DNA from: a virus
UHGV virus genome: UHGV-0390448
Length of the DNA stretch: 64,000 nt
Strand: one strand, 5' to 3'
Under the pieces are notes generated by a model. It saw only the letters and a program-made list of their open reading frames with translations. It did no database searches and was not told the DNA's origin. Positions 29,707-60,941 of the stretch are shown here, piece after piece (the first letter of the stretch is position 1; every line of letters begins with the position of its first letter). Made by a program: the position numbers and the translations under genes.

Positions 29707-30735
29707 TCAGGAATCCATCAGGCGACTATTTGCACCAACGGATGCCCCGCTACGGCGCAAATATCGCATAAGTGTTTCGGGCTTTTTCCATGTGCCTTCC
29801 TGCATGATCTCGACCATTGACACCTGTTTCTCAGCCATATCAATTGCCGCACCAACACGCGCACTATGACCTGTCCACGTCCGGTATCTTCCTTTGTTCG
29901 GCGTGGCATCTCGCTTATTCAGCAATCCCCAGGCATCGCTGAATATTTTCTCCATCGCAGGAGCAGTAAGAGGCGTTGTCGTGATTCTGGCTTTATTACT
30001 GCGGTGTATTGGCGGGAATAGCACCGCGTCCGGATGTTCACGAAGTCCGGACACCTCCAGCCAGTCGTTTAGCACGGCGGTAGTGCAACGAGAAAGCACC
30101 TTATCAAGTCCGGCGGCGGTCGTGATGGTCTTCGTGTGTGAAATATGCAGCGTTACAGTGTCACCTGTTTGGTCCAGATCTCCGACACGGATGCGCGAGA
30201 TTTCTGACATACGCATCAGGGTATTGTATGCCACGAAGAGAAACGCCCGATTGCGCAGGTCCACCAGCCGCTCGGAACGGGACAGCAATACGTCGAGCAA
30301 TTTCAGATCATCCCACCGCAACGGTATAGCCTGGCCTGTACGCTCGCCTTTTTCCGTTGCCGCTTCGCGCCGGATGCGCCGCATGGCCAGAGATACACTT
30401 TTATCGTCTGACAGCGGCGGTAGGCCGCATTGCGAAAGCAGCATGTTAAGCATGGCATAGTGCTTATCAATGGTGGTCGAAGCCAGATCGGCTTCATGCA
30501 ACTGGAGAAGATACTCGCGGGCCATTTCCGGCGTAATCGGGAACCAGGGGCGCTGGCGCGAATTACACCACCGCGCCCAGGAATGAAAGACCAGACGGAG
30601 ATCACGAAGTGTATTTGGGGCATAAGCTCCCTGGTCGTTCATGAACTGCATAAAGTTTTTTGCAGCTTCCTGGTATTCGGTGCCAATATCGCGCAGAAAA
30701 CCGCCAGAACCGCCGGAGATAACTAGTTCACCCAT
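29707..30735 (-). CDS. cre: Cre-like tyrosine site-specific recombinase
   Basis: 342 aa; blocks WFPITPEMAREYLLQL, AYNTLMRMSEISRIRVGDL and WTGHSARVGAAIDMA align to P1 Cre (WFPAEPEDVRDYLLYL, AYNTLLRIAEIARIRVKDI, WSGHSARVGAARDMA). Confidence 0.85.
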   Translation of the reverse strand: MGELVISGGSGGFLRDIGTEYQEAAKNFMQFMNDQGAYAPNTLRDLRLVFHSWARWCNSRQRPWFPITPEMAREYLLQLHEADLASTTIDKHYAMLNMLLSQCGLPPLSDDKSVSLAMRRIRREAATEKGERTGQAIPLRWDDLKLLDVLLSRSERLVDLRNRAFLFVAYNTLMRMSEISRIRVGDLDQTGDTVTLHISHTKTITTAAGLDKVLSRCTTAVLNDWLEVSGLREHPDAVLFPPIHRSNKARITTTPLTAPAMEKIFSDAWGLLNKRDATPNKGRYRTWTGHSARVGAAIDMAEKQVSMVEIMQEGTWKKPETLMRYLRRSGASVGANSRLMDS

Positions 30736-30886: not shown

Positions 30887-30920
30887 CTAACTTTAAATAA
30901 TGCCAATTATTTAAAGTTAG
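30887..30920. other. lox-like recombination site, 13-bp inverted arms with 8-bp asymmetric spacer
   Basis: ctaactttaaata-atgccaat-tatttaaagttag; arms 9/13 identical to loxP, spacer begins ATG like loxP; about 150 bp upstream of the cre-like start. Confidence 0.6.
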
Positions 30921-31089
30921 AAATCGGGACTTTTTTCCCAAAAAAACACCGGCAAGATCACTTCGCAAATCTGTCAGCCATGCGGTAGCCGTTTCCTGGT
31001 TACATTTTCTAATAGGAACAATCAAAAAAAAGCGGTTTTATCCTTTACTCACCTTGTTATTCAGCATAAATTTGTCACAGGACTTTTAT

Positions 31090-31096
31090 GTTAGAA
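31090..31096. promoter_or_regulatory. gttagaa half-site about 20 bp upstream of the candidate repressor gene
   Basis: atgttagaaaactaaat. Confidence 0.4.
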
Positions 31097-31116
31097 AACT
31101 AAATCGAGTAGGAATA

Positions 31117-32154
31117 ATGAGTAAGAAGTCGATCGAGAATGAGTACAAACGGTTCCTGCAAACCGCTGAACGGTGGAAAGAGCTGGTGGTCGCAAACTCT
31201 GTTTTCCATGATACCAGTTACGTTGGCGAGGAATTTCGCCATGTTGCATTAACACATGATCCGGCTGTATTAGAAGAAGCTGAAAAATGCATAGCCGAAT
31301 GGAAAGCCTTTGTTGATCTGTGTCGCAAGGATGATGACAAAGCCTCAAACATTGTTGAGTCGGTTTATTTACCGATCCCATTCATTGTTGAGGATACTAA
31401 TCAGAGTACGCATATCGTTATGCAAAGCGCAACCACAACGAGAACATTTACGCGCGAAGACCTGCTGAAAAAATACGATAAAACTATAAAGAAAAGCATG
31501 AAAAACAGGATCTTTTCACAGGTTGTCGGTGCGCTTGAAGAAGAACGCAGATTCTTCGCCGCAGAACGTGAGGGCGAGGTATACCGCGCAAGAAAAGAAG
31601 GTTATACCGATGTGGTGATTACCACCAATATCGAGGGCAACAATGGACTTTCACGCTTCAGAGTGGGTACGCACGGTGCGCTGATCTTTGCAAAAAAAGC
31701 AAACACAGAGATTCCCGTTGTTAACAACGTTGGTGAGCGCCGCACCCTTACCATTTACACTGGCATTAAACCGCTTCCGTGCGGACTTCTCGGCGAATTT
31801 GACCTTTATCGGGTTCGTGACCTGGAAAAGCAGCAGCCAAGCTATGTCGTGAAGTCATATATCCTGAGAAACATTGATATCCGCAATCAGAGTTTAAAAA
31901 ACAAATCAGAGAAAATGCTGTCCGAAGCCGATCCAGCCATACACCAGATCGTTAGCCGGAAAATTCAAGAAGCTAAAGATGCAATGGCAAGGCTGGATAA
32001 AATGGACCTGGAACTACTGGAAGTTATGATTGCCTCCGGCGATGACCTGACAGGCATCCGCCTTACTGAAGCCAGGAAAAAATACGGTAAAAGCGTTGAA
32101 GAACGCTATGGGTACACATTCACACAAACGATGTACGCGGCAAAACTCTGGTAA
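31117..32154 (+). CDS. Candidate immunity repressor, positional analogue of P1 c1; family not recognised
   Basis: 346 aa from MSKKSIENEY; convergent with pacB and between pacB and lox, where P1 has c1; own terminator. No similarity to P1 C1 recognised from memory. Confidence 0.5.
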   Translation: MSKKSIENEYKRFLQTAERWKELVVANSVFHDTSYVGEEFRHVALTHDPAVLEEAEKCIAEWKAFVDLCRKDDDKASNIVESVYLPIPFIVEDTNQSTHIVMQSATTTRTFTREDLLKKYDKTIKKSMKNRIFSQVVGALEEERRFFAAEREGEVYRARKEGYTDVVITTNIEGNNGLSRFRVGTHGALIFAKKANTEIPVVNNVGERRTLTIYTGIKPLPCGLLGEFDLYRVRDLEKQQPSYVVKSYILRNIDIRNQSLKNKSEKMLSEADPAIHQIVSRKIQEAKDAMARLDKMDLELLEVMIASGDDLTGIRLTEARKKYGKSVEERYGYTFTQTMYAAKLW

Positions 32155-32170
32155 TCGCAAGCCACCCACA

Positions 32171-32194
32171 AGCCCCGAATCGCCGGGGCTTTTA
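32171..32194 (+). terminator. Rho-independent terminator after the candidate repressor
   Basis: agccccg-aatcgc-cggggct followed by tttt. Confidence 0.55.
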
Positions 32195-33700
32195 AATGTC
32201 AATATCAGGAATATCCACTTCTGCCAACACCTGATCGCGGAATGTTGCTAGTTCTGCGCCAATGTCTTCATTAGCAGGCACGTAATCCACCAGCATAGTG
32301 AAGCAGTAGGTATCCCATCTGTCCGGCGACTTGATGTTTAACTTCTGCCGCATGTGCTCCTTGCGCATCATCGCCACCTTCCCTTCTTCGTTAAGCATAT
32401 ACGGGATTTTTGATGCCTGATCGGCAGTTTTGGGGTCACTATCGATACGCATACGCCCTGATTTAATGGCATCCCCTGCCATAATATTGGCGTAAGCACG
32501 CTGATTGACAAAGCGTTCTCTGTCTCTTAGCGCAAACATAGGTTTACCCCAACGGATGCGAACGGGATTAGCACCACGGCGGACAAGCTGCGCACACGTA
32601 TCTGAACCAAAGCCATCAGCATCCACAGCAATGGTGATGTTCGGGTATTTATCAGGAGTGCATTCGTTATAGATAAAGTCGGCAAAAGCCAACGGGTCCA
32701 TAGTGCCTGGCATCTCCAGTATCTTAAAGTTCACAACACGTCGTTTCTCACGATAACCGGATACTTTGCATATATTGAGCACCGATTTGTCGCGACCATT
32801 ACCGACGTCAGCGGTCGCTACCCAGCCCCAATCTTTCTCCAGCAACACTTTACGCCGTGCGGCGCGGTCGCACTCATCACGACCAAGCAAATACCCGTTA
32901 ATTGCACGCGGGAACTGGCCCAGCACCTTAACCATGTACTCCAGCGAATCCCTGCCGCCGTACTCCAGCAATTTCTCACGAATAAAGCTCGGTTCAACGA
33001 ATGGAGATTCTTCAGAGTTAAGGACTATTGCCGTCCAGACTCCTTCCGGATTGCCTTCTGCCTTTGCCCTTGAATGGTGGGATTCATAAAAGTAACCGCT
33101 TGGACGCGTAGGCTGGGAAAGCATGAGCATACGGTTATCTTTCTGCGTTAACGCCCCCGTCATGACGTTAATCGCCTTATCTGATATGCCCGATGCTTCA
33201 TCAAGGATTAGCAGTAAATGCTCCGCGTGCTCCCCCGCCAGTGCCTCTTCGTTACCGAGTCGATAACCTTTACAGAGCACTTCCCATATCCCTTTACGGG
33301 AACGCTCATAAAACATGGTGTCAGACAGGACAAAATAGGTCTGTAACCAGCCGTGGCGCTTAACAGCATTCGCCCAAAACTGTTTCACGTATTTGAATAC
33401 GCCTGTTTTTACCTGGCCTATTTTGTTCGCAACAATAATGACGCGGGCGTCGGGGAACAGGATCATAAAAATTAGTAGCAACATCGCGGTAAGGGACGAC
33501 TTACCCGTTCCGTGTCCGGACGTAACGGTCGTCCTGCTCCCCGTCTCCTGCACTGACTGAATGATCTGCTGCTGCTGGTGGGAGGGGAACATCCCAAAAA
33601 TATCGACAACCGCCTGGGTAAAGTTGTATCGATACCTGATAACCATATCGCGCCAACGTGGATCACTGGTGACGCACTTAATCTTACGACCACCAGCCAT
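32192..33700 (-). CDS. pacB: Terminase large subunit (PacB-like)
   Basis: Walker A-like TSGHGTGKSS, Walker B LLLILDEASGI; 502 aa; follows pacA. Confidence 0.8.
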   Translation of the reverse strand: MAGGRKIKCVTSDPRWRDMVIRYRYNFTQAVVDIFGMFPSHQQQQIIQSVQETGSRTTVTSGHGTGKSSLTAMLLLIFMILFPDARVIIVANKIGQVKTGVFKYVKQFWANAVKRHGWLQTYFVLSDTMFYERSRKGIWEVLCKGYRLGNEEALAGEHAEHLLLILDEASGISDKAINVMTGALTQKDNRMLMLSQPTRPSGYFYESHHSRAKAEGNPEGVWTAIVLNSEESPFVEPSFIREKLLEYGGRDSLEYMVKVLGQFPRAINGYLLGRDECDRAARRKVLLEKDWGWVATADVGNGRDKSVLNICKVSGYREKRRVVNFKILEMPGTMDPLAFADFIYNECTPDKYPNITIAVDADGFGSDTCAQLVRRGANPVRIRWGKPMFALRDRERFVNQRAYANIMAGDAIKSGRMRIDSDPKTADQASKIPYMLNEEGKVAMMRKEHMRQKLNIKSPDRWDTYCFTMLVDYVPANEDIGAELATFRDQVLAEVDIPDIDI

Positions 33701-35064
33701 TAGTCATCCTCCGGCTGGTCTATCGCAATCTCGTCATCTACAGCATCAAAACCGGTATCCCCCGCGTCATAATCACCGTAGATATCAGCCGTGGCGGAAG
33801 GGTCTATATTCAGGTCTTCATCATTGGCCTCAAATTCACCGGCTTTACGTTCTCCGTTCCGGTCGTAATCCCCCATCCCAAGCCTATCAACGATTTTCGC
33901 TACTTCAGCCCGGCGTTGTGCAAGCCATTGTGGGAGTCCAGCTTGTTGCTCGGCAAACTGCTTCGCCTCTTTATCCAGTTGCTCATCATCAACATCGTTA
34001 ACGTCAGAAACCGGAGGCTCCAGAAGTGAGATCGCTTTTGCCGCTCGTGCCGCCAGGATAGCCGGGACACTGACGCCCTGCCGCTCGATATATTCAGCAA
34101 CGCCTATATCGTCCAGCTCCTCGCGCTCACGCATACGTATAGCGGCGGCGATAACTCTGGCGGCGCGTGCGTCAGCGCCAATGCGATACTCAATCTCTTT
34201 GCCACGCTGCTCGGCTTGCAGGCGAGTAATCGCCAGTTTTTCTCTGGCCTCAGCCTCTCTGAATGCCTGCTGGCGCGCGCCCTGCGCAAGTTTTTCATCC
34301 CCCTGGCGTAGCTTCTGCTCGGTCTGGTAGATGGCAGCCAACCTACTGATAAAGTCATTCATGTAGTAGGCCGCATCGCTTATTAGGCCGAGAAGACGCT
34401 GCCCTGGGTGCATTCCCTCTGGCTGTGTATCGCCGAGGGCGTCAATCTCTTCCTGTAGTCGTTCCGCTTCCTGGTCAACGATGGCCTGATACTGAATTGC
34501 TCGTTCCTGCGCCATCTGTATCGCAAGTCGTAAATGTTCAGTCGCGCCGTTCTTCATCATCTCACGGGCGACGTTGGTGGCAGGCAAAGTGGCGCTTTGA
34601 GCTGATGAGTCAGGGATCATTTGCAATGATCCCTTGTTTCGTTGGGCTTTTTCGCTGCTTTTAGGGATCATTTCCCCCATTTCATCACAAAATGATCCCC
34701 TTACATCCTTGTGTATCTTATTGTTATTACTTGGCTTTTCTTTGTGATCCGCATTTTGTTTTTGCGGCATGGCGCGGAATCGTCCACCAGCTAACGATTT
34801 GTCAGTTTTTGTAAATTCTGTGCTTTTATCAGCCTTTTTTTGCTCTTTTTTTGGGCTTGTGGCGCTACTTTTTGCGCGCTGTTTTGTACTTTTCCCGGCA
34901 GCCTTAGCTTTCGCTTTAACCTCGTTTTTTTTCATATTGAGATGCTTTCTGGCGGTGTTAAAGCTGAGGTCATGCTGCTCGCAATATTCTTTTATGGTGA
35001 TCCCGGTTTCTTCTCTTAACTCCAGGAACTTAGCTCGATGCGCTTCCCAGTTAATTAACGTCAT
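33700..35064 (-). CDS. pacA: Terminase small subunit (PacA-like); contains pac-like repeats
   Basis: Position upstream of pacB with start-stop overlap; N-terminal HTH-like region; internal GATC repeat cluster. Confidence 0.6.
   Translation of the reverse strand: MTLINWEAHRAKFLELREETGITIKEYCEQHDLSFNTARKHLNMKKNEVKAKAKAAGKSTKQRAKSSATSPKKEQKKADKSTEFTKTDKSLAGGRFRAMPQKQNADHKEKPSNNNKIHKDVRGSFCDEMGEMIPKSSEKAQRNKGSLQMIPDSSAQSATLPATNVAREMMKNGATEHLRLAIQMAQERAIQYQAIVDQEAERLQEEIDALGDTQPEGMHPGQRLLGLISDAAYYMNDFISRLAAIYQTEQKLRQGDEKLAQGARQQAFREAEAREKLAITRLQAEQRGKEIEYRIGADARAARVIAAAIRMREREELDDIGVAEYIERQGVSVPAILAARAAKAISLLEPPVSDVNDVDDEQLDKEAKQFAEQQAGLPQWLAQRRAEVAKIVDRLGMGDYDRNGERKAGEFEANDEDLNIDPSATADIYGDYDAGDTGFDAVDDEIAIDQPEDD
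34612..34700. other. Candidate pac site: four GATC-centred heptamers as two inverted pairs
   Basis: agggatcatt/aatgatccc at about 34612-34633 and again at about 34664-34699, inside pacA; P1 pac is built from Dam-site hexamer repeats within pacA. Confidence 0.45.
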
Positions 35065-35453
35065 AGGGAAGCCTCACGTTTTTTCACAGCGGCGTTCCAT
35101 AGCTGGTTAGTCATCGCCACCAACTGACGCTGCTCCTTTCGTAATTGAGCTTCTATCTTTCGGTTGGTGTTTTTCACCAACAGCCGACCGAATTCAGGAG
35201 TGCGCCCGCGCACCTTGAACTGGTATCCATTCAGGCCATGTAGCCAATATTTCCGGGGGTATACGCGGTCGTCTATTTCGCAAATGGCACGACTGGAACG
35301 AACAAAAAAACGTATGATGTTATTTACGTTTACGCGCGACACATGAAGGTGAGGATATTGTGCTTTTGCACGGCTGGTGATTTCGGTGACCGTCAGATAG
35401 CAGTCAGCCCTGATCATGATATCCGCTATTTCGGCGCTACTGATTTGCTCCAT
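35061..35453 (-). CDS. Hypothetical protein at the position of P1 lpa (late promoter activator); unverified
   Basis: 130 aa immediately upstream of pacA; degenerate operator site upstream. Confidence 0.35.
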   Translation of the reverse strand: MEQISSAEIADIMIRADCYLTVTEITSRAKAQYPHLHVSRVNVNNIIRFFVRSSRAICEIDDRVYPRKYWLHGLNGYQFKVRGRTPEFGRLLVKNTNRKIEAQLRKEQRQLVAMTNQLWNAAVKKREASL

Positions 35454-42605: not shown

Positions 42606-45600
42606 TTAAGCCGCATCGGCGATTATTTTACGCAATTCATCTACCGAGTAACGCGTAGATACCATCCACGCCGGACGGTCAAAGTCCACATCCGCGACCG
42701 GATTCACTTCAAAATTCCAGAAACGCCCGCCAATCTTCTTAATCGCGTCTTTGGCGTTCCGTATTGTCGAGGAACCTGGTTGGTCGGCAATGAGATAAAC
42801 CGCGCCAACGTCCTCGCTGACGCTCCACCAGCGCCCGCGAACACGCGCCTTAGCGCGAATAGGCTTATCATTAACCACAATGATATAGTCATCATTCGCC
42901 GCTTCATCAGCTCTGGCTTCAGCCTCTGCCGCCTGCTCTTCTCTTTTGCTTTCAGCCTGTTCAAGCCTTTCCGCGATCTCTGATTCGGTGGCCCCGCCGT
43001 TTTTCAGCGATACAAAGTCTTGCCACGTTGCTGATTTGAGCGCATCCGGCAACTCATTCACATAGTCACCGTCTTTCAACTCACGGGCGCGGCGGGTAGC
43101 CATTTCTACCAGGCGATTAACAGAAACAGCATCAGCAAAATCGTCCTTACTAATGTGTTTTTCATCAAATGCATTGATGACAGCCCCCACCTTAATCCAC
43201 TGTGCTGCCGGTGATTCCAGGGGGTTATCAGCCTGGACAATGGCGAGTTTCGCTCCATCTACCCCATTATTCGCCAACTGTTCCAGTGCCGCCCATCCAT
43301 CTGCATCACTGAGTGATTTATATTGCTCAAACAATGCATCGCGCCAGGCCACCAGCGCAGAACGTGTTTTTTCGATCTTCGTCTTAATTTTCGCGATCTT
43401 GACCTGATTAAACATCCGTTCAATATCATCGATATTGCTAAAGGCTTTCATCCTGCCCTTGAATAAACGGTATGCCAGCACGGTCCTCCAGAATGATTCC
43501 AGACCTTCTCCGGACGGTTTGCGGAACAAGCTAAGAATATCTTCAGAAGTGACTTTATTAAGCGAACGACCTGACAGACCACGCCCAGCCATCCAGTTTT
43601 CGAACTCCTGGGCAACATCATCCATCGTTGCCTGTGCGCCCCATGCCTGCATTCCCTGGATGTAATCATACCCATACAATGCCTGGAGGAATCCCTCACC
43701 GTCCACGATATTCAGCGGGTTATCACTGGCTTGTATTTTTGCCACTTCACGCTTCAGCGCCTCATCGTTGCCATCTGGATATATCCATCGTTCAGGTGCT
43801 ATATCCGATGCTCGCCCGATTTTTTGGCCTATCACGCCATCATAGGCCGATGACAGCGCGATCTGACCATCATCTGTGCGATATGCCCAGTATTTAATAG
43901 CTGACCCACCGCCCCATGCATTACCAGGTTTACCAGCAATAACATTCATTACCCCATTGCGAATAGCATCATAGAACTGATCGCGAGTAAGTATTGTTGA
44001 TAGCTGGTGGCACTGAACACCACGCGCAGCCGTTGCGCGCGATTCAGCTACCCCCTCTTCAAAAGTTACCGCTTCAATCACAGAGTCAAACGGCAATGTA
44101 ACGATTGACCCTGGTGATCGAGCGTAACGACTTGCTCTATCCAGCCAGGCGATACGGCAGATGTACTGTGCTTTTTCACCGTCAATTTTTTCCACCCGGA
44201 CAATCGCTGTTGTTTCGCGATCATCAATGACTGCACGGTAATAACTACCTTTATGCAACAGGATATTCTTGTCAGTGCGCATATATTCCTGTGGGTTCTG
44301 AATAACATCGATACTGATATCCAGCACACCAGACTTAATAGCGCGCTCCACATCACCACGAGAGCGTTTCATTATGGTATCCGCGTCTTTTGCCCTGGTG
44401 ATCGCAAACCGCAGCACCCGCGCACGTTTTCTGTAGCTACTCAACTGCTCAAGCGCGTATTTTTGCCCATTCCTGTTCGTGCCCGCTTTTATCAGGTCGT
44501 CAAGATTGCGCTGGTAATACTCTATCTGTTCCATCGCGCTTTTCAGTTCTGTCTCCATCATGCCGATATCTTTTCCAGCGGCGTTTGCCGCTTTCAGGTA
44601 GATATCGAGAGCATTGTTGGCCTCGCGCTGTGCTTTCAGTTTCAGACGTTCTTCACGCTCTTGCGCCTGGCGAGCCATGATTGCGCGGCGTTCTTCCGGG
44701 TTTGCCGCCAGCATAATGGCGCGTTCATCAGCATCATCCGCATCACCATTGGCGATCTCTGACATGTCGGAGGTCATCACCATCTTGATCCAGTCTTTCT
44801 TACGTTTCAGCGTATCCAGACGGAAGTCGTCGAATGTGCCTTTGCCACAATAGTAGTGAACATTGACCTTCTCTTGCGGTGAACCTACGCGCGCACCGCG
44901 CCCATTTCGTTGGTCGATACTGGCTGGTGTCCAGGGTAGTGTCAGGTGGTGGATATCGGTTGTCCCGATATGCAGGTTAATACCTACTTCAGCCTTCTTG
45001 TTACAGATAATGATGCGCGTGCGCCCTTCGTTATAGTCGGCGGCAATGCCTTCCATACCCTCAAGGCCAGCATCATTTTTAGCTGAGAGATAATCCTCAT
45101 ATTGGGCAAGTTTGCTGTAGTAGGTTTCCCATGCCCCTTCTTTGTATTCACCGTTTTTATTCGGAGTAGGTTCAGTCGGCTTATTCACCTTCTTCAGCTT
45201 GATGCCGCCAGCCTGGCTAACGGTCGTCGCATTGATAATGCCTATCTCCTGCTCCGGCATTTGCAGTGCACTGGCGATAATACGGCGCAGCTTCTGGTGC
45301 TGGGCTTTTTCATCAATGAAGACAATTTGTTTACCGTTCTTCAGACCTTCACGAAGGTTTTCGATCAGCGCGGCATACTTCGGCGGGATGGGGTGTGATA
45401 CCTGCTGCAGATCAATCCCGGCGGCAGCAATGGCCTTCAGTATTTCAGCTTCCAGTTCAATGCTGGCACGTATTTCAACATGCGCCGGATGTTCACTAAA
45501 GGTGGTCTTCACTACCTTACTGGTGCGCGTACTAACCAGCCCACCAGCGCCGTCTTCTTCGGCCTCGTCTGCATCATCTGCCACTTTACCGCCAGCTACT

Positions 45601-48600
45601 TTTGGCAGGGCATCAGCAATAGCTTTTACCTTGTCTGCAAGCTCAACGGGGAACTGGAATGTAATCGCACTGGCATACAGATCCGGATCTATAGCAACCT
45701 TATCCATGTCGCGGATGATGGAGAAGATGAAATCATCCGGTTTTTCGTTTGTGATATGCCCGTTTTCATCAACCGTCAGCGCATCTTTACTACTTAACTC
45801 CTGTGCACGCTTACGAAGCTCTTCATAAGCAGCCTCCTGCTCCCCTGTCATCGGGATCTGCAAGGTATTCTCGACAATATCAGGGATTTTAACCGTCGCC
45901 CCGACGTCCGCAGCAGTCTTCAGAGTAGTCCAGCGATGGAAAATACCACGCAGGCCATCAAGGTTCTGGAAGCCAACCAGCCCCTGCTTCTCTTCCACTT
46001 CCCCGGAAATTTTCTGGACCTGAACTGTGGCTGTTTTGCCAAACACACGAACGAAATCATCAGGCGTAATGATGCCCATGCGCATCCACTCTTCCTGCGG
46101 AATGACAGTAGACAGCATGTTGAAGGCATCAATCGGACTGTTCACCAGCGGAGTTGCCGTCAGCATGACTACACCACGCCCGTTGTTGCGTTTCATCATG
46201 TACGCAGCTTTTACAGCCATGTCGCGGGCCATCTTGGATACTGCCGGGTTAGGCAAATATGCCAGTTGTCCCGCTTCACGCCCGGCATTAAAGGAGTTGC
46301 GGTAGTTATGCCCCTCGTCGGCAATCACGCTATCGAAGTTCATATCCTCAAAGTACGGGATATTCTGCTTCTTCGTTGTACCGGTATTCGCGGCCTGATC
46401 CTTAATCTTGTTCTTCTTCTGCGCATCACGGTGTTTACCAGACGCCAGGTCAAGACGCCCCATTTCCACAGCATTAAAGACAGCTTGCTGTGAGTTCTCC
46501 TCGATGGTTTTTTCTCGTAGCGGGATAGACGCGAATTGTTCTTTTGTCATGATGACCGTTCGCCAATTTGACGACGGGATCATGTTCATGCGCTGAACGA
46601 TAACGGCGCTGGCGGACTCTTTCACAACATTTCTGGTAAGAGGCTGCCCGTTACTGTCGAGGCGGGGTTCGCCATTTTCATCAAGCACCGGCGCGGTCAG
46701 AATATTGCCGTCTTCATCACGAACTTCATCCAGACCGATAAACATCATATTGGCGAAGGCATCAGCACTGTAGAAGCTCTGTGCCTCGTGATACCAGTTC
46801 TGATAAACCGCCTTCGGAACAACAATACACGTGCGTTTAGTGCGGCCTGTTTCGAAGTTATACGCCTCAAGCGCAAGCGCGGTCGTGGTTTTACCCAGCC
46901 CGGTACCAAATCCCATGATGCCGCGCCCATCTTCTGACAAGCGCCGAACTTCTTCATTCTGATAAGTCAGAGGAATGCGCTTTCCACTAATCCCTTCCAG
47001 GCCAAGCGGTGCGTTAGAGTGCGTGAACGGAATGAAGCCATTGAATGCGTCGTTATACTCGCGGGCTATCTGATCCGCCTGCGGGTGGGTGCGTAACCAG
47101 TCGTTAAAACTAACTTCCAGTTGAGCAATTTTATCCAGGTACTCGTTAGCGTTCTGCCCACGCGGTTTAACACCGTTCAGGTAGTTTTCTAACTGGTTCA
47201 GGAAGCCGTCTTTATTGTTGGCCTTCTTGAACTCATTCCCGTTTTTGCCGTTTACGGTTCGTAGCTGATAGCCGGTAAATACCCCGTCCTTACCTTCGTA
47301 ATCGTCCGGAGATACCAGAATGCCATCGACGACCTTCAGATCAGGTTCAGTGTACTTAAACTCGTCATAGCCCTGCTCTGCCAGGAACTCTTTTATCAAG
47401 CGGCGATCCAGCCAGCGGGCGTTCAGATTAACGGTGACTTTATTTAGTGGCGTGAAAATGCGTTTCTCTTCGATTTTCGCCAACTGACGCTCAAAGTTCG
47501 ATTTCTGCTCACCTGTTGACGCATCACGCCAGCCCATCAGCAATGCTGTTTTGGTTGCAATATCGCCGCTGGTGGCGCGGTCCATCGGCAGCAGGCAGCC
47601 ATACCCATCAATAGCGATATCATCAAATTTCGCCAGGTATTCAAGGGCCGCGTCGTCGTCCTCTGGCAGTTCACCAGCAAACGCCTCACGAAAGTCGCCC
47701 AGCGTTATAGGATTAAGGGCTACATCACTGAAAAGATGTGCTATCACTTGTTCCGGACGTGTAAAGTCAATACCGGCAGCACCATCCGTTACATCAAGTC
47801 GCCCTGCCAGAAGGTCAGAAGTGGAACCATCCTGTTTCACGTTGCCAGTGAACGTCATCCAGTTTTTAGCTCCAGCTTCTGCAAGCCCATTCAGCTTAAT
47901 CGCGTGCGGTGGTCCATACTTCGCAACTTCTGCTGCCGCCAGGCGGGATGCATCTGCCAGTTTGTCATCAACGTTCACCCCCAGGTTACGCAAATCAAGT
48001 GCCTTGTTGATCAACTGCCCTATCAACGCACCGCGCATAACGCGCTCCCTATCTTTTTCTCGCTGTTTGCCAGCAAAGCGAATCATTGCTGCCACTTCAT
48101 CACTGACAACCGATGGATAGTCGGACGCGATCGCCGATATCTGGTCCCATGACAAAGCCAGAATCCCGTTTGTTGACTGGAACGCGATCTGCAGATCGCC
48201 AAACGTCGAAACACCATATCGACTTACATCAAGCGCGGAGGATTTGGTTGTCGTGTCCTTAACCCATTTCAGGCCATCAAACTCATGCCAGATACCGCCT
48301 ACAAGGCGCTTATCCCCTACTTTTGCGCCCTGCCATGCCTGGGTAGTTACTCCGAGCAAATCCCAATTAATACGGCTTTCAAAGCGGCGTGATAGAGCGG
48401 TTTTCATCGACTCATTGGATACACGGCCATCCTTTTTCACCACCAGGGTATTGCGGAAGCTGGTGCGTTCCATGTCGCCATAAACAAATCGCTTCCCTTC
48501 GGTTGTAAACCATTTCCCTTTGAGGAAGGAATCCCAAAGGACGTTTGCCGATTTGAGCGTTGCATCATCCGTGTCGGGGATCATCTCCAGGAAGGTTTCC

Positions 48601-49457
48601 GGGTGTTTACGCAATACCCATACGTCCACCACGGTATCTGTACCGGATTCGCTGAACGTACCAGAAGGCATACGATGCGCGCCCAAAAATTCCGCCTTAC
48701 GGCTGACTTTATCGCGCAATTTTTTGTATTTCGTACCATCGGTCATGCCATTCGGCACCACCAATACAATTAGTCCACCAGGCTTAACCTTGTCGATCGT
48801 GCGCAGCACAAAGTAATTGCCAACGTTCTTCTCGTTTGCATATGCCGGATCAAGCCCGGCGACACCGGAACGCCCTTCACCAAACGGTACGTTACCAACA
48901 GCGTGATCATACATTGCGTCTTTCGCCGCCAGCGCCTCAAACGCCCCGATATTCACATCGTCTTCCGGGTGCAAAAGCTGGTTTATTCGACCGGAAATCG
49001 GAGACAGTTCGGCGCTGGTCATTATCATGCCCTGCCGTTTTGTCTCCTGGAAAATACCTGTGCCTGCTGACGGTTCCAGTACGTGACCGCTATCAATACC
49101 GTAGTCGCCGAAGAGATCCCATATACCTTCTGCCATAAACTGTGGCGTATAGTATTCGTATTGGCTGCCCTCACCATCTGTCAGGCCGCCTTCACCGGTA
49201 TACCCGGCAAGAATCTGGCGCTGTTCGTCAGTTAATTTCGCCCCATCGAAGCCGGGCGGAAGGGAATTAAGAAGATCTACTGCGGCGTTGTTTGCTGCCC
49301 GGCGTGTTTTCTGAATACTGACGCCATCGACTTTCTTAACGCCAAAGGTCACTACAGCTCGCGGTTTATGCAACCGACTAACAATTTCAATCAGCGCCCC
49401 AATGCTGGTGGCCTGGCTAATTGAATCAATTATTTTGTCCAAAGGAAGCCCCCTCAA
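42606..49457 (-). CDS. darB: DarB-like giant virion antirestriction protein (N6-adenine methyltransferase plus SF2 helicase)
   Basis: 2283 aa; MTase motifs VLEPSAGTGIF and GNVPFG; helicase motifs GFGTGLGKTTTA, ADEGHNYRNS, MLTATPLVNS; size and domain order match P1 DarB (about 2255 aa). Confidence 0.75.
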   Translation of the reverse strand: MRGLPLDKIIDSISQATSIGALIEIVSRLHKPRAVVTFGVKKVDGVSIQKTRRAANNAAVDLLNSLPPGFDGAKLTDEQRQILAGYTGEGGLTDGEGSQYEYYTPQFMAEGIWDLFGDYGIDSGHVLEPSAGTGIFQETKRQGMIMTSAELSPISGRINQLLHPEDDVNIGAFEALAAKDAMYDHAVGNVPFGEGRSGVAGLDPAYANEKNVGNYFVLRTIDKVKPGGLIVLVVPNGMTDGTKYKKLRDKVSRKAEFLGAHRMPSGTFSESGTDTVVDVWVLRKHPETFLEMIPDTDDATLKSANVLWDSFLKGKWFTTEGKRFVYGDMERTSFRNTLVVKKDGRVSNESMKTALSRRFESRINWDLLGVTTQAWQGAKVGDKRLVGGIWHEFDGLKWVKDTTTKSSALDVSRYGVSTFGDLQIAFQSTNGILALSWDQISAIASDYPSVVSDEVAAMIRFAGKQREKDRERVMRGALIGQLINKALDLRNLGVNVDDKLADASRLAAAEVAKYGPPHAIKLNGLAEAGAKNWMTFTGNVKQDGSTSDLLAGRLDVTDGAAGIDFTRPEQVIAHLFSDVALNPITLGDFREAFAGELPEDDDAALEYLAKFDDIAIDGYGCLLPMDRATSGDIATKTALLMGWRDASTGEQKSNFERQLAKIEEKRIFTPLNKVTVNLNARWLDRRLIKEFLAEQGYDEFKYTEPDLKVVDGILVSPDDYEGKDGVFTGYQLRTVNGKNGNEFKKANNKDGFLNQLENYLNGVKPRGQNANEYLDKIAQLEVSFNDWLRTHPQADQIAREYNDAFNGFIPFTHSNAPLGLEGISGKRIPLTYQNEEVRRLSEDGRGIMGFGTGLGKTTTALALEAYNFETGRTKRTCIVVPKAVYQNWYHEAQSFYSADAFANMMFIGLDEVRDEDGNILTAPVLDENGEPRLDSNGQPLTRNVVKESASAVIVQRMNMIPSSNWRTVIMTKEQFASIPLREKTIEENSQQAVFNAVEMGRLDLASGKHRDAQKKNKIKDQAANTGTTKKQNIPYFEDMNFDSVIADEGHNYRNSFNAGREAGQLAYLPNPAVSKMARDMAVKAAYMMKRNNGRGVVMLTATPLVNSPIDAFNMLSTVIPQEEWMRMGIITPDDFVRVFGKTATVQVQKISGEVEEKQGLVGFQNLDGLRGIFHRWTTLKTAADVGATVKIPDIVENTLQIPMTGEQEAAYEELRKRAQELSSKDALTVDENGHITNEKPDDFIFSIIRDMDKVAIDPDLYASAITFQFPVELADKVKAIADALPKVAGGKVADDADEAEEDGAGGLVSTRTSKVVKTTFSEHPAHVEIRASIELEAEILKAIAAAGIDLQQVSHPIPPKYAALIENLREGLKNGKQIVFIDEKAQHQKLRRIIASALQMPEQEIGIINATTVSQAGGIKLKKVNKPTEPTPNKNGEYKEGAWETYYSKLAQYEDYLSAKNDAGLEGMEGIAADYNEGRTRIIICNKKAEVGINLHIGTTDIHHLTLPWTPASIDQRNGRGARVGSPQEKVNVHYYCGKGTFDDFRLDTLKRKKDWIKMVMTSDMSEIANGDADDADERAIMLAANPEERRAIMARQAQEREERLKLKAQREANNALDIYLKAANAAGKDIGMMETELKSAMEQIEYYQRNLDDLIKAGTNRNGQKYALEQLSSYRKRARVLRFAITRAKDADTIMKRSRGDVERAIKSGVLDISIDVIQNPQEYMRTDKNILLHKGSYYRAVIDDRETTAIVRVEKIDGEKAQYICRIAWLDRASRYARSPGSIVTLPFDSVIEAVTFEEGVAESRATAARGVQCHQLSTILTRDQFYDAIRNGVMNVIAGKPGNAWGGGSAIKYWAYRTDDGQIALSSAYDGVIGQKIGRASDIAPERWIYPDGNDEALKREVAKIQASDNPLNIVDGEGFLQALYGYDYIQGMQAWGAQATMDDVAQEFENWMAGRGLSGRSLNKVTSEDILSLFRKPSGEGLESFWRTVLAYRLFKGRMKAFSNIDDIERMFNQVKIAKIKTKIEKTRSALVAWRDALFEQYKSLSDADGWAALEQLANNGVDGAKLAIVQADNPLESPAAQWIKVGAVINAFDEKHISKDDFADAVSVNRLVEMATRRARELKDGDYVNELPDALKSATWQDFVSLKNGGATESEIAERLEQAESKREEQAAEAEARADEAANDDYIIVVNDKPIRAKARVRGRWWSVSEDVGAVYLIADQPGSSTIRNAKDAIKKIGGRFWNFEVNPVADVDFDRPAWMVSTRYSVDELRKIIADAA

Positions 49458-51656: not shown

Positions 51657-52616
51657 TCATCCCCGAAAGCCCTCCGGAATTGACCAGTCTTCCCGGTCAA
51701 ATTCAGACCGATAGCCACGCTGTTTCATCAGGTCAAATGCTTCATTGATGGTTGCACATCCCTGGGAAGCAGAATAATCCATAGAGAAATCCAGGGCGCT
51801 GGATCGTTTGGGCTTATTCACTGTGGTAGCACTACGTAACCATGCAAATTTTTTTGCCAGTTTTTCAGCGGTACGATACAGAGCCTGCCGTTTTGCGAAC
51901 CCCTCGTCTGAACGACGCTTTGCAGCTCTCGCTTTTGCCGCCGCCAAACAGTGGTTGGTATGTTCTTCCCTGATTACTGTTTTTTTATCCAGCAAGCCAT
52001 TATCCGCTTGAGAACTATCTGCTGGTGAAGCCTTTGGCTGAACCGCGCATGATCTTTCTCTTCTTTTGGCTATAGAGTGACTCTTATTTTCTATTGGCTG
52101 TTCATTTTGAACATGGGGGGACTTGTTCAATTTGAACAGGGGGTGCCCAGTTTCAAAAAAATAACGAACCTTTGAAATCAACTGCTTAACCAGTTTTGTG
52201 GCGTTGGCAAATTTGATGCCCTGCTTACTCCCTATCTCCATTGCTACATGAATGAAGTGGAGAAATTGTGTTGTAAACCGGTACACGTTACACACCTGAG
52301 CATTGTTATTCGCTACCTGATGCTGCTTAACAAGCATTCCGCACTTCGTCGCTTCAGTAAATGCCCGGCGCACAGTAGAAATACTGCGTCCTGTAATCTC
52401 GGACATATCAGCATATGAGCGACGGATCATGTATTCATCGGTAGCTCCTGCCAGGTTGGCGAACTCGGCAATAATGGCGCTATGTGAAGGGGAAAGAAAA
52501 CCGCTATGACGAGCAAAAAAACTCAACTGATGACCTTTGATTTTTTTGTGGTATTCAGTGTTGTTTTTATACTCAGAAGTGTTGAAAGTAACTGAAACTG
52601 AATTTAAAATACTCAC
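51657..52616 (-). CDS. Putative replication initiator (RepL-like, winged-helix); tentative
   Basis: 319 aa; HTH-like segment EITGRSISTVRRAFTEATKCGMLVK; operator half-site in its leader, as for the C1-controlled kilA-repL replicon of P1. Confidence 0.35.
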   Translation of the reverse strand: MSILNSVSVTFNTSEYKNNTEYHKKIKGHQLSFFARHSGFLSPSHSAIIAEFANLAGATDEYMIRRSYADMSEITGRSISTVRRAFTEATKCGMLVKQHQVANNNAQVCNVYRFTTQFLHFIHVAMEIGSKQGIKFANATKLVKQLISKVRYFFETGHPLFKLNKSPHVQNEQPIENKSHSIAKRRERSCAVQPKASPADSSQADNGLLDKKTVIREEHTNHCLAAAKARAAKRRSDEGFAKRQALYRTAEKLAKKFAWLRSATTVNKPKRSSALDFSMDYSASQGCATINEAFDLMKQRGYRSEFDREDWSIPEGFRG

Positions 52617-52677: not shown

Positions 52678-52710
52678 AAAAGCCGCTACTCAGCGGCTTT
52701 TGCTTTTTTT
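52678..52710 (+). terminator. Plus-strand rho-independent terminator inside the Rep-like leader
   Basis: agccgct-actc-agcggct followed by tttgcttttttt; no plus-strand CDS upstream. Confidence 0.45.
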
Positions 52711-52789
52711 GGCAGTCGCTACCGGAGCAGTGACCGCGATCCTACTCGATCACGTGCCGTCGGATCAACAGTGTATAAAAACACACTGT

Positions 52790-52815: not shown

Positions 52816-53814
52816 TCACATCCTCTTAGACACAAAGATCAGCGGAGTCACCGTCTTGTTCTCTTTCACCGGTATTTCTTGTTGTTTATTGGCTGATATT
52901 GGCAGACCATAAGTGGCATTAGCCCCCAGGGATTCAAGCATCGCTGCGACAATGCGTGCATCATCCTCTGACTGCATACGGCAGAGCGCCCGGCGCTGTT
53001 CTGCGCTGATAAAAACAGGCATTTCCTGGATAGCATCACGCAAAATACGGCGGCATTTCTTCGCGTTCTCCCCCTGGCTTTCCATCATCGCGGCCTGGTC
53101 GCGTAGTTTGTCGCGAAGCTGCATATTTTCCACTTCAAGATGTATCAGTTCCGACTCCAGAACTTCACGTTGTGCTGATTCGAGTATGGCTTGCTGACTC
53201 TTCATTGCTGAAAAGTGGTGAACCAGATCCGTAGCAGCATTATCGGTAAAACCTTGTTCGATAAGTGCCGCATGAATCGCCGCGTCGCGTTCTTCTGCTG
53301 ATTCAAGCATCAGGCTTTTCTTGTCGAGGCTGATATAGTTAGGCACAGTTACGTAATCAAAACCGTGAAAAGACTTTACCAGGGATACAGAGTAATCTGG
53401 ACCAGATGTAGCCCATGACCAACCACCTGCGCCAGAATTAATCATACCCTGAACAATACGTCCGGTGTCCGTATCCAGTATTTCCTGTGTATGGGTAACA
53501 ATGCCGTTGTCGTCAATTGAAATATCGATAGTCCTGTTTGACGGCACGTTCTCCAATACAACAGGCTTCCCATCTACCATCACAACAGAGACTTCCGGCA
53601 AGTCCAGGCTTTTCGTTTTGTTATAGTGCATCGCCCGGCGACCATGACCGTAATAACCATACATCTCACCCAGTGCGATACGCTCTTTTGTTTCTGGCGA
53701 GTTGAATGTGTCTCGTACCGACTGGATAACGTAATTGCGATTGTTCTGAGGTGTGTGTTTGCGGATTTTCTCTACCAGGGAGAAGCGATCCGTAACGGTA
53801 TTCAGTGATTGCAT
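52816..53814 (-). CDS. Putative head maturation protease or scaffold (Pro-like); tentative
   Basis: 332 aa, directly downstream of the portal-like gene; coiled-coil C-terminal half. Confidence 0.35.
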   Translation of the reverse strand: MQSLNTVTDRFSLVEKIRKHTPQNNRNYVIQSVRDTFNSPETKERIALGEMYGYYGHGRRAMHYNKTKSLDLPEVSVVMVDGKPVVLENVPSNRTIDISIDDNGIVTHTQEILDTDTGRIVQGMINSGAGGWSWATSGPDYSVSLVKSFHGFDYVTVPNYISLDKKSLMLESAEERDAAIHAALIEQGFTDNAATDLVHHFSAMKSQQAILESAQREVLESELIHLEVENMQLRDKLRDQAAMMESQGENAKKCRRILRDAIQEMPVFISAEQRRALCRMQSEDDARIVAAMLESLGANATYGLPISANKQQEIPVKENKTVTPLIFVSKRM

Positions 53815-56502: not shown

Positions 56503-57888
56503 TCAGGTTTCCAGCCCAAAATCGCTTTGTTCTGTTTTGGCTTCGAACATCGTGAAGTTAAGCCCTTTCCCCTCTCCATGTTCCAGTTCAATCTCATTAG
56601 AAACAGCGGTCAAAATACTACGTAGATCGACATCTCCACCGCCGAACATATCGCCCAACGCCTGCTGTTTATGAATCAGTTCGTCGTTGATTTTTTGTGC
56701 CATTTTTTTGAATGCAGCCCCCATGCGCTTCGCGCTTCGATTATTTGCCACGATGAATAGCGCCAACGCCTCAGCTTCCGGCGTGCTATCACCGAAGAGT
56801 CCGCGCTGGGCTATCACCTCTTCCACCGCCTGACCGTTATCTTTGGCTTCACGAACAAGGTTAATCGCATCCTGGAGTGCTGCTATAGCCTGTTTATCCA
56901 GGCCGTTCACCTGCTCTATACCATCAACCAGACCAGTTACAGCATCATGATGTGCATCGCCAGAAATCGACTGCATTTGCGCAAAGTCACTGGCTGCTGT
57001 ATTAAGCGCGGTCAGGATATTGCGCATTTCCGGATCCGGTTCTTCCGCCACAAGCCGAACAAGTCGCTCATCCTTATAGGCTTTGGCAAAAATCGCATTC
57101 TGAATGCGATCGATAAGCTGTTTCGTTGGACGTCCATCGGCTGTAAGCAAACCTGCCGTCGCGGTATCGCCTATTTCGTGCAAAAACGCACGAATAAACG
57201 CATCATTGGACCGCGCCAGTAGATTGCCATCATCTGAAGGATTAAATAGCGCCATGACGCTCTCAGTGAGAAATTGCGCATCCGCATACGCTTTCTCACT
57301 TGCAGCCATCTCTTGCAGATCGCTGATGTTTGAGTCGCGTGCAAATTGAGCACGATCAACGTCAGTGAGGCGCTCGCGAACCAGTACAGGCATCACCATT
57401 GCCCTGACGTCTTCGGGATTAAGGCCAAACTCTTTAGCGTGATCGATAAGATATTGTCGGTAATCTTCAGCCTGCCCTTGTTCATAAGCACGCCAGATTC
57501 CCATGCTTCGACCATTACCAGACTCAACGACATTATCCGGACCAACAATCGGGGAACCATGACTACTCATACCCGAATCAGTGAGTTGTGCCGGGCGTAA
57601 ATTGGCGGCGATACGGTTAACCTGGAGCTTACTTGACAGTCGGGTGCGATCGCGAGGCTGGAGTTCCTCCGGAAATGACGGATTTATACTTCCGTCCAGG
57701 TTGTTAGAAATGATGAGCTTTTTGGCATCAATAACCTTGAACGCTGTTTTAACTTCGTCGCCTTTGCTGGTGACGACATAGCTGCTACGCCCCAACTTCG
57801 TCTCTTGCTTTTCAAGAGATGACACCACAGCGATAACCCCCTCAATGTTCGCTGCGGCTAGAAGTGCTGATGTTACGTTTTGAGTCAC
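56503..57888 (-). CDS. Hypothetical virion-associated protein (possibly Dar/Ddr-like by context)
   Basis: 461 aa; last gene of the minus-strand block that starts at the tail fibre. Confidence 0.5.
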   Translation of the reverse strand: MTQNVTSALLAAANIEGVIAVVSSLEKQETKLGRSSYVVTSKGDEVKTAFKVIDAKKLIISNNLDGSINPSFPEELQPRDRTRLSSKLQVNRIAANLRPAQLTDSGMSSHGSPIVGPDNVVESGNGRSMGIWRAYEQGQAEDYRQYLIDHAKEFGLNPEDVRAMVMPVLVRERLTDVDRAQFARDSNISDLQEMAASEKAYADAQFLTESVMALFNPSDDGNLLARSNDAFIRAFLHEIGDTATAGLLTADGRPTKQLIDRIQNAIFAKAYKDERLVRLVAEEPDPEMRNILTALNTAASDFAQMQSISGDAHHDAVTGLVDGIEQVNGLDKQAIAALQDAINLVREAKDNGQAVEEVIAQRGLFGDSTPEAEALALFIVANNRSAKRMGAAFKKMAQKINDELIHKQQALGDMFGGGDVDLRSILTAVSNEIELEHGEGKGLNFTMFEAKTEQSDFGLET

Positions 57889-57979: not shown

Positions 57980-58351
57980 TTACGCTGCATACCCGTTAGC
58001 TGAAACCCAGTTTACGGTCTGTTCTTTGGCCTGGTCGAGTGTCAAAAATTCACCAATATATTGAGATATGCCTCTCAAAGCATCGATGAACTCCATTTGT
58101 GATGATTTAGTAAATGCACCACTAAGGAAGTCAACAACAATTTTAGGCGTTTCTTGTGCCGCCGGTTGCACTTCCTCTTCTTGCTGTTGCGCTGGATTAT
58201 TCGATGAACCAAGCCCCAGCTTCATCATCACTTCAACTATCCGCACGCCAATAGTGACACGTTGTACCGCAGTCGCGCTTTTTTGCGCTGACATCAGCTC
58301 AGACAGTTCTTTGCCTAAGCTAAGGCGCTCCGTTACTGATATTTTCACCAC
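57980..58351 (-). CDS. Hypothetical protein
   Basis: 123 aa; overlaps upstream gene by 7 nt. Confidence 0.45.
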   Translation of the reverse strand: MVKISVTERLSLGKELSELMSAQKSATAVQRVTIGVRIVEVMMKLGLGSSNNPAQQQEEEVQPAAQETPKIVVDFLSGAFTKSSQMEFIDALRGISQYIGEFLTLDQAKEQTVNWVSANGYAA

Positions 58352-60303: not shown

Positions 60304-60941
60304 GCATCTTCCTCCAGGCGCGCTATTTCTTCTTTCAATACGCGAGTTTTCGCCAGTTCCTGCGCCATCTCGGTTCTAATGATTTCAGTTTCTCTTGTTG
60401 CGCGGTCTGAATTACCTTGCACCTGATTTAATTTTTCTTTGGCCCTTTCAATATCCTCGCGGATCGCATCGCGAGATTCCTTTGCCTCTGCTAGTTTCTG
60501 CGCATTGGACTTAACGCCTTTTATTTTCTTATTCCCATCATCAATATCTTTCGCCGCACGAGCTAACTTACGCGCCAATGATTTCTGAAATGATGATGCG
60601 CCTTTATTAAATAAAGCAGCCAGTGATTGCCCTAAAGCCGTCAGCGTTTTAACAGGCTTGAAAGGAACAATTTTTCCGTTCAGTTTTACACCAGAAATAT
60701 CACCAGTATCATTAACCTGAACGTCCATCGTCTGCTCATCGATTCCGATAAGGGTAAACGTGCGCGTCATGATCCCGTCTTTCTTCCTGCCATTACTGGC
60801 GGGGATCACCCTCGCTATCTTGTAGCCTCCTTTACCGATTTCTTTGACGAGTTTTGCCAGCCCCTTTTCGTTTAACTCATCATAATTAAGAAGAACATAA
60901 TTAGACTTATTTGACATTCCAGTCTCCTTCACACTTTTCAA
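60300..60941 (-). CDS. Hypothetical protein with coiled-coil C-terminus
   Basis: 213 aa. Confidence 0.5.
   Translation of the reverse strand: MKSVKETGMSNKSNYVLLNYDELNEKGLAKLVKEIGKGGYKIARVIPASNGRKKDGIMTRTFTLIGIDEQTMDVQVNDTGDISGVKLNGKIVPFKPVKTLTALGQSLAALFNKGASSFQKSLARKLARAAKDIDDGNKKIKGVKSNAQKLAEAKESRDAIREDIERAKEKLNQVQGNSDRATRETEIIRTEMAQELAKTRVLKEEIARLEEDA

Follow-up and report, generated by a model that had tools for sequence, protein, structure and literature searches.

Does a D6-like phage-plasmid carry its packaging start (pac site) within the coding sequence of its own small terminase, as phage P1 does? The question is raised by a stretch of 64,000 nucleotides of the viral genome UHGV-0390448, called the window below, in which an open reading frame (ORF) at 33700-35064 codes for a PacA protein with 74% protein and 78% DNA identity to PacA of phage D6, and about 21% protein identity to that of P1. 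A previous reading of the sequence only had noticed in this pacA-like gene four copies of the heptamer GGGATCA/TGATCCC, arranged as two inverted pairs within about 90 bp, and had proposed them as the packaging initiation site, with a repeat unit different from that of P1. The analysis reported here supports this proposal. The position of the cluster in the linker-coding part of pacA and the selection acting on its GATCs at the DNA level indicate that it is most likely the pac site, from which headful packaging would start, of a D6-like phage-plasmid, of the P1 type but in a variant form.

The repeat cluster and its unit

The four heptamer copies were recovered over 87 bp (34613-34619 and 34664-34670 on the plus strand, 34627-34633 and 34693-34699 on the minus strand) and, in all pairings, the forward and reverse copies are 100% complementary over 10 nt. 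The copies and their inverted arrangement were thus correctly described by the sequence-only reading, but the unit is longer than a heptamer: it covers 9-10 nt, GGGATCATT(T), with GGGATCWTT (W being A or T) as its 9-mer form. The 10-nt core of the four copies reads AGGGATCATTT twice (34612 and 34663) and AATGATCCC(T) twice (34625 and 34691). The interval first assigned to the site, 34612-34700, contains these four copies, but a fifth related and weaker unit, GCGGATCAC on the gene strand, lies beyond it and extends the site to 34752. GGGATCWTT occurs four times in the 64-kb window, where about one occurrence is expected, and all four are inside the cluster. The gene and its repeat elements are the following.

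33700-35064, minus strand: pacA (small terminase, pacase A subunit, 454 aa), D6-type; holds the cluster in its disordered-linker part (codons 46-160)
34997-35005, minus strand: upstream unit-like site, GATC at gene nt 63; CGGGATCAC (GGGATCAC), in the part of pacA coding for the helix-turn-helix (HTH)
34744-34752, minus strand: repeat element 1, GATC at gene nt 316; gene strand GCGGATCAC, coding for A-D-H; weaker match to the unit
34690-34701, minus strand: repeat element 2, GATC at gene nt 368; gene strand AGGGGATCATTT, coding for R-G-S-F
34663-34673, minus strand: repeat element 3, GATC at gene nt 396; gene strand AAATGATCCCT, coding for E-M-I-P
34625-34634, minus strand: repeat element 4, GATC at gene nt 434; gene strand AGGGATCATT, coding for K-G-S-L
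34612-34622, minus strand: repeat element 5, the last in gene order, GATC at gene nt 447; gene strand AAATGATCCCT, plus strand AGGGATCATTT, coding for Q-M-I-P

Five GATC units are grouped in 141 bp, and four of these are identical over 9-10 nt. In gene orientation, forward (F) and reverse (R) units succeed each other as F(316), F(368), R(396), F(434) and R(447), with spacings of 52, 28, 38 and 13 bp, and elements 4 and 5 constitute a perfect 10-nt inverted pair (10-bp stem, 3-nt loop). The putative site is an array of five or more copies of the asymmetric and Dam-methylatable unit (G)GGGATC(A/T)TT, placed in both orientations in the disordered-linker part of pacA. The isolated site at nt 63 (34997-35005) may be a distal element of the packaging site or may be incidental.

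In an AlphaFold2 model computed with a 17-sequence alignment, PacA has a confident three-helix N-terminal domain (residues 1-45) and a long helical body from residue 163; residues 46-160 have a predicted local distance difference test score (pLDDT) below 50 and are predicted to be disordered. The cluster belongs to the linker that joins the N-terminal HTH to the helical body, where the pac site of P1 also falls in the alignment.

The cluster was compared with 1000 dinucleotide-preserving shuffles, in which GATC-containing heptamers were counted as distinct sites within 90 bp. The maximum number of same-heptamer sites was two in 958 shuffles and three in the other 42, and never four. The absence of such a cluster in the shuffles (0/1000) and the conservation data show that it is not due to chance.

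Conservation of the GATC sites and competing explanations

The pacA DNA of 18 further elements (D6, P1, nine plasmids and seven contigs), with about 22-99% protein identity to the window, was gathered by plasmid tblastn and contig look-ups; no confirmed loci of PacA relatives were obtained when a single genome of each species was scanned. In 7 of 7 D6-type pacA genes, GATCs are present at the same positions (nt 63, 316, 368, 396, 434 and 447), whereas elsewhere in the gene they vary by lineage. The linker (nt 140-480) of three D6-type lineages shows 59-63% DNA identity, with 42% of the columns and 11% of the 4-nt windows invariant. All five linker GATCs are invariant in these lineages (p ~1.8e-5), and GATC is the sole tetramer which is conserved there at every occurrence. 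In the window's own sublineage, 14 of 271 columns are variable and none of these is in a motif core.

The GATCs are under purifying selection at the DNA level, independently of the protein code. Wobble bases inside GATC are fixed in 7 of 7 cases, whereas adjacent ones are fixed in 1 of 6 (Fisher p = 0.005). In element 2 of D6, the GATC is kept despite a Gly to Arg substitution (GGA TCA to AGA TCA; RGSF to RRSL), and the relative P0013 keeps the same GATC in a shifted codon register. Element 4 retains its GATC although the window has KGSL there, D6 EGSS and Shigella/E. fergusonii QRSS. Element 1 is invariant in the seven D6-type genes while the wobble of the adjoining His codon varies (CAC/CAT). 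At the nt 63 site, GGG ATC is fixed in all D6-type genes and the next wobble varies (ACC/ACT/ACG); this site is absent from the K-type genes, although the same G-I-T peptide is encoded. The K-type designates here the pacA of D6-related phage-plasmids of Klebsiella, Raoultella and Enterobacter, with 43-56% protein identity.

Three of the five window sites (34694, 34666 and 34615) are positionally kept in six K-type lineages, where linker identity is 46-55% and only 3% of the 4-nt windows are invariant. The GATC of element 3 is the most deeply conserved, being present in all D6-type and K-type lineages, in the relative P0025 and in a Citrobacter relative; that of element 5 is invariant in 7/7 D6-type genes and 6/6 K-type lineages, and that of element 2 is conserved in all K-type lineages. 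Elements 1 and 4 are specific to the D6 type and have no counterpart in the K-type relatives. When 14 lineages are pooled, P1 among them, the density of GATC in the linker is 5.7 times that of the remaining pacA sequence (83 sites/4.9 kb versus 41/13.8 kb). The nominal p of ~3e-21, like the other pooled p-values, overstates the independence of lineages that share a phylogeny; none of the 23 other tetramers with this base composition is enriched more than 1.23-fold.

The repeat unit is clade-specific and, as the sequence-only reading had supposed, different from that of P1. In D6-type, K-type and P0025/26 linkers, the oriented consensus is (G)GGGATC(A/T)TT(T), and 61 of 65 sites have G at position -1 (13 of 15 for the D6-type sites alone), whereas P1 and the Pantoea/Leclercia/Citrobacter group have TGATCA, with T at -1 on both halves. 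These flanks are constrained in the linker only and are diverse around the GATCs found elsewhere in pacA. In the presumptive recognition helix of the HTH (NTAR-K/R-xL), residue 40 (window 34945-34947) is Lys in 15/15 PacAs of the GGGATCWTT type and Arg in the 4/4 of the TGATCA type (P1, Pantoea, Leclercia, Citrobacter). It is the sole HTH column which separates the two unit classes and is a candidate specificity determinant, but the separation is confounded with phylogeny and should be taken as a lead only.

The most regular array of the PacA family was observed in the Pantoea agglomerans plasmid pMMD61212-C_C, in which pacA nt 154-214 contain six TGATCA-type units with an exact 12-bp period and code for a (S/N/G)DH-type peptide repeat.

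What the conservation of GATC proves is that a Dam site is selected, and selection for packaging does not follow from it. The cluster could then be a Dam/SeqA-responsive regulatory or sequestration element, acting on pacA/pacB timing or on replication status, with pac located elsewhere; we consider this improbable. P1 does use Dam sites for regulation elsewhere in its genome, the layout in the window lacks the two-cluster geometry of P1, and the window has further GATC clusters, such as three GATCs within 26 bp at 52738-52765. However, no sigma-70-like promoter was found in or near the cluster, and the sole terminator match is the palindrome itself. The GATC flanks (GGG...WTT) are constrained too and therefore point to a sequence-specific reader rather than to Dam/SeqA alone, and the extended unit is found nowhere else in the window. 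Moreover, the position is homologous to that of the mapped P1 pac, which argues for packaging, and the feature follows pacA down to about 22% protein identity.

The inverted repeats might also act as an RNA or cruciform DNA structure in pacA, controlling translation or mRNA stability, but this explanation has little chance of being correct. A 181-nt RNA folds better than shuffled sequences (z = -2.95; none of 200 shuffles as good), elements 4 and 5 provide a perfect 10-bp stem with a 3-nt loop, and eight pairs of the consensus fold are changed on both sides. Covariation nevertheless contributes next to nothing (-0.36 of -31.96 kcal/mol), and the paired cores that do not vary are the motif copies themselves. 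Many units of P1 and of the relatives follow each other in direct orientation with a periodicity of ~12 bp and cannot pair, as in Pantoea (six GATCs at nt 154-214) and in the left cluster of Enterobacter (F-F-F). It is the GATC with its flanks that is conserved family-wide, and not a pairing partner.

Slightly less probable still is a repeat at the protein level ([RK]GS[FL] ... [EQ]MIP), of which the GATCs would be a by-product. The repeats do translate into two GS[FL] and two MIP peptides, and these are the sole conserved islands of the linker alignment. Against this, GATC survives peptide changes (RGSF/RRSL, KGSL/EGSS/QRSS, GII in another register), the synonymous bases inside it are fixed while the neighbouring ones vary, and different peptides (DH, GS, MI, KI, DL, DQ) encode the same DNA unit. 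The linker being predicted as disordered, its conserved peptide islands (DH, GS[FL] and [KM]IP) are best explained as the DNA unit translated in various frames and orientations.

An origin-like array of Dam-site heptamers of the P1 oriR type, or a chance cluster, is next to inconceivable even though the P1 plasmid origin has GATC-containing heptamer repeats and GATC density alone is not significant, since the cluster lies inside an intact conserved ORF with the D6 replication genes elsewhere, shows no tandem iterons and no DnaA boxes (three loose matches in 64 kb versus 6.6 expected, the nearest at 35080), and was reproduced in 0/1000 shuffles while being conserved in the relatives.

Elsewhere in the window, another inverted pair of the heptamer is present at 60770-60808 (TGATCCC at 60770 and GGGATCA at 60802, 32 bp apart); its flanks do not fit GGGATCWTT and it is probably due to chance. 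The three GATCs of 52738-52765 (and 52837), CGCGATCC, TCGATCAC and CGGATCAA, are intergenic between a protease-like ORF (52816-53814) and a repL-like ORF (51657-52616). They adjoin the palindrome AACAGTGT...ACACTGTGTT, just past a terminator-like hairpin at about 52680-52710, and their flanks are unlike the pac unit. Lytic replication may have a Dam-sensitive control region or origin here.

Comparison with P1 pac and with the putative packaging sites of D6 and the K-type relatives

The primary work on P1 pac is reportedly that of Sternberg and Coulby (1987, 1990) and Skorupski et al. (1994). In the P1 record, GATC hexamers are located at pacA nt 195, 202, 214 and 229 and at nt 325, 337 and 348, on both sides of the annotated IHF site (nt 256-268) and of the mapped cleavage positions (nt 276-284). 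P1 pac is described as a 161-bp site inside pacA with seven TGATCA/G repeats carrying Dam sites (HEX4 and HEX3); IHF and HU are involved, cleavage is gated by methylation, and a synonymous hexamer mutation cuts packaging about 9-fold (PMC10028697). The record and this paper bear out the parallel drawn by the sequence-only reading with a P1 pac likewise built of GATC hexamers inside pacA.

The site of the window resembles that of P1 by its position (pacA nt 316-453 of 1365, in the 5' third of the gene with pacB adjacent, compared with nt 195-348 of 1194 in P1) and by its composition, multiple short repeats around a Dam GATC in the pacA linker after the N-terminal HTH. A Cre/lox-type site about 4 kb downstream and a Dam-class methylase proper to the element family complete the likeness. 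In contrast, the unit is asymmetric, GGGATC(A/T)TT, and not the quasi-palindromic hexamer TGATCA/G; five elements (F, F-R, F-R) occupy 141 bp, whereas in P1 4+3 hexamers flank a cut region of ~90 bp; and no IHF site is recognisable in the window.

Phage D6 (AY753669, MF356679) has an orthologous pacA with GATCs at nt 63, 316, 368, 396, 434 and 447 in the same orientations, and the same gene order, lpa-pacA-pacB-c1-rox-dre. DNA identity is 78% over pacA but about 62% in the linker, and the D6 flanks are less uniform (GAGATCATT, GGGATCTTC) than those of the window sublineage, whose four copies are identical over 9-10 nt. The K-type sites share the GGGATCWTT unit with the window and match its positions 34694, 34666 and 34615. 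They are, however, bipartite and P1-like, with a left group of two to three units (often 12 bp apart), a gap of ~170 bp and a right group F-F-R-R, and they lack the window sites 34746 and 34628. The D6-type genes, including that of the window, have no left cluster but a single compact array, whose first unit is separated from the others by a 52-bp gap. In the D6 type, the left group may have disappeared and the nt 316 and nt 434 sites may have been added.

Several observations weigh against the identification of the cluster as a pac site. The window has no second cluster at ~100-170 bp, as P1 and the K-type relatives have, and the P1 model of a cut between two clusters is therefore not simply transferable. 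The IHF consensus WATCAANNNNTTR at up to one mismatch gave no match in the window, in D6 or in most relatives while the annotated site of P1 was recovered, although such a scan is a weak test, IHF sites being degenerate. The Dam methylase gene is absent from the 64-kb window itself. Both D6 GenBank records annotate rox and cix and no pac, and a description of a D6-type pac was not found in a search of the open literature, which did not cover the D6 genome paper (Gilcrease & Casjens 2018). The density of GATC is not significant by itself, five sites in 150 bp being found somewhere in the 64-kb window in ~25% of random placements, and the significance of the cluster comes instead from the extended unit common to its copies and from their conservation. 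The relatedness of the pooled lineages, mentioned above, belongs here as well. The truncated PacA entries P0020 and P0024 were considered as physical DNA ends at pac and rejected, being frameshifted or split genes and not contig breaks at the cluster.

It is possible, though rather doubtful, that the D6 clade has a mechanistically distinct version of pac, in which an asymmetric 9-bp unit, a one-sided compact site and linker peptides dictated by the DNA go together. GGGATCWTT might then be used in convergent pairs and be read by a PacA HTH with Lys in the recognition helix (Arg in the TGATCA type). The ancestral left cluster may have been lost with new sites acquired instead, so that the cut would not be made between two clusters, and the cis-acting DNA site, rather than a function of the protein, may dictate the sole conserved peptides (DH, GSF, MIP) of the disordered PacA linker.

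A further conserved stretch was found within the otherwise divergent linker.

34798-34818, minus strand: conserved DNA island, GAATTTACAAAAACTGACAAA, coding for the peptide EFTKTD

Its core TTACA.A...TGAC is near-invariant in D6-type and K-type genes, in which neither the Thr codon (ACA) nor the Asp codon (GAC) varies. In the K-type the island is located between the left and right GATC clusters, at ~50 bp from the left one, a distance comparable to that between HEX4 and the cut in P1; in the D6 type it precedes all five units. It is a speculative candidate for the cleavage region or for a region contacted by an accessory factor or protein. An 8-mer common to the P1 cut region (TTGTCAGT) and to the reverse complement of the island was discarded as evidence: only TGTCA is kept across relatives, and the match is a coincidence or a lead.

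Gene context, proposed packaging mechanism and significance

The features surrounding pacA are the following.

35061-35453, minus strand: lpa (late promoter activator; PF25716 BPP1_LPA, E = 4e-50), directly upstream of pacA, as in P1 and D6
32192-33700, minus strand: pacB (large terminase, pacase B subunit, 502 aa), directly downstream of pacA; position homologous to D6 pacB
31054-32154: c1-like ORF, downstream of pacB
30887-30920, no strand assigned: rox-type site with perfect 15-nt inverted arms on both sides of a 4-nt spacer, CTAACTTTAAATAAT-n4-ATTATTTAAAGTTAG
29707-30735, minus strand: Cre/Dre-family tyrosine recombinase, downstream of pacB

The gene order lpa, pacA, pacB, c1, rox, recombinase is P1/D6-like, and this context makes the window part of a D6-like phage-plasmid. 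The rox-type site sits between the recombinase and the c1-like ORF, where D6 has its annotated rox, and is the counterpart of P1 lox. Going from pacA towards pacB, one reaches it 3.7 kb after the cluster; in P1, pac and lox are ~4.0 kb apart. A D12-class Dam methylase (PF02086, E ~1e-53 to 1e-56) is encoded by D6 (orf63) and by the closest plasmid relative of the window, the 99%-identical pEC361_3, and the position of this gene is ~3 kb past the left edge of the window. Neither PacA nor PacB matched a Pfam family.

The window belongs to a minority sublineage, with seven plasmids at 97-99% identity versus 103 at D6-like distance. This sublineage was found in 17 of 5426 complete E. coli genomes, in one copy each and always on a plasmid of ~90 kb. 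In pEC361_3 (NZ_AP027414.1), the RefSeq pacA begins at an internal Met (locus CDS 694-1665) in spite of an intact 454-codon ORF, and the annotated start therefore comes after the pac-like cluster. In pMUB-MIN14-1 (NZ_CP069647.1), two 1-nt homopolymer deletions split pacA, which is a defective gene or a sequencing error; every motif core is intact. The window also contains, at 42606-49457 on the minus strand, a 2283-aa ORF which is a positional match to D6 darB (defence against restriction), a DarA-like ORF (58345-60303) and a DdrB-like ORF (56503-57888); a P1-type anti-restriction module is therefore conserved in this element.

For the D6-type site we infer PacA binding, methylation dependence, the cleavage position and the packaging direction by analogy with P1. 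The N-terminal HTH of PacA, together with PacB, would bind the repeats once their GATCs are methylated by the host Dam and by the Dam-family methylase of the element. The pacase would cut near the repeats, and packaging would run toward pacB, c1 and rox. The terminal redundancy of the first headful would carry two rox sites, on which the Dre-type recombinase could cyclise the genome. The location of rox 3.7 kb downstream fits packaging in this direction, with a terminal redundancy allowing cyclisation by the recombinase; the same logic of terminal redundancy and recombination at lox is established for P1.

As a concept, a pac site that depends on Dam and lies in pacA goes back to the P1 work of the 1980s, and the advance is therefore incremental. 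E. coli, Salmonella and Shigella commonly carry D6-like phage-plasmids (~110 plasmid records match at the DNA level), which often travel with resistance plasmids and in which pac is left unannotated. With a defined D6-type pac, the units TGATCA and GGGATCWTT, with bipartite and compact sites, would represent a natural series for the evolution of small-terminase specificity and of Dam-gated packaging. The locus would also be a clean example of a cis-acting DNA signal which constrains the sequence of a disordered protein segment. A defined D6-type pac unit would predict pseudo-pac sites in host and plasmid DNA for generalised transduction, and would allow D6-based phagemids or delivery vectors orthogonal to P1. 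Its practical value would lie in the understanding and the engineering of transduction by D6-like phage-plasmids.

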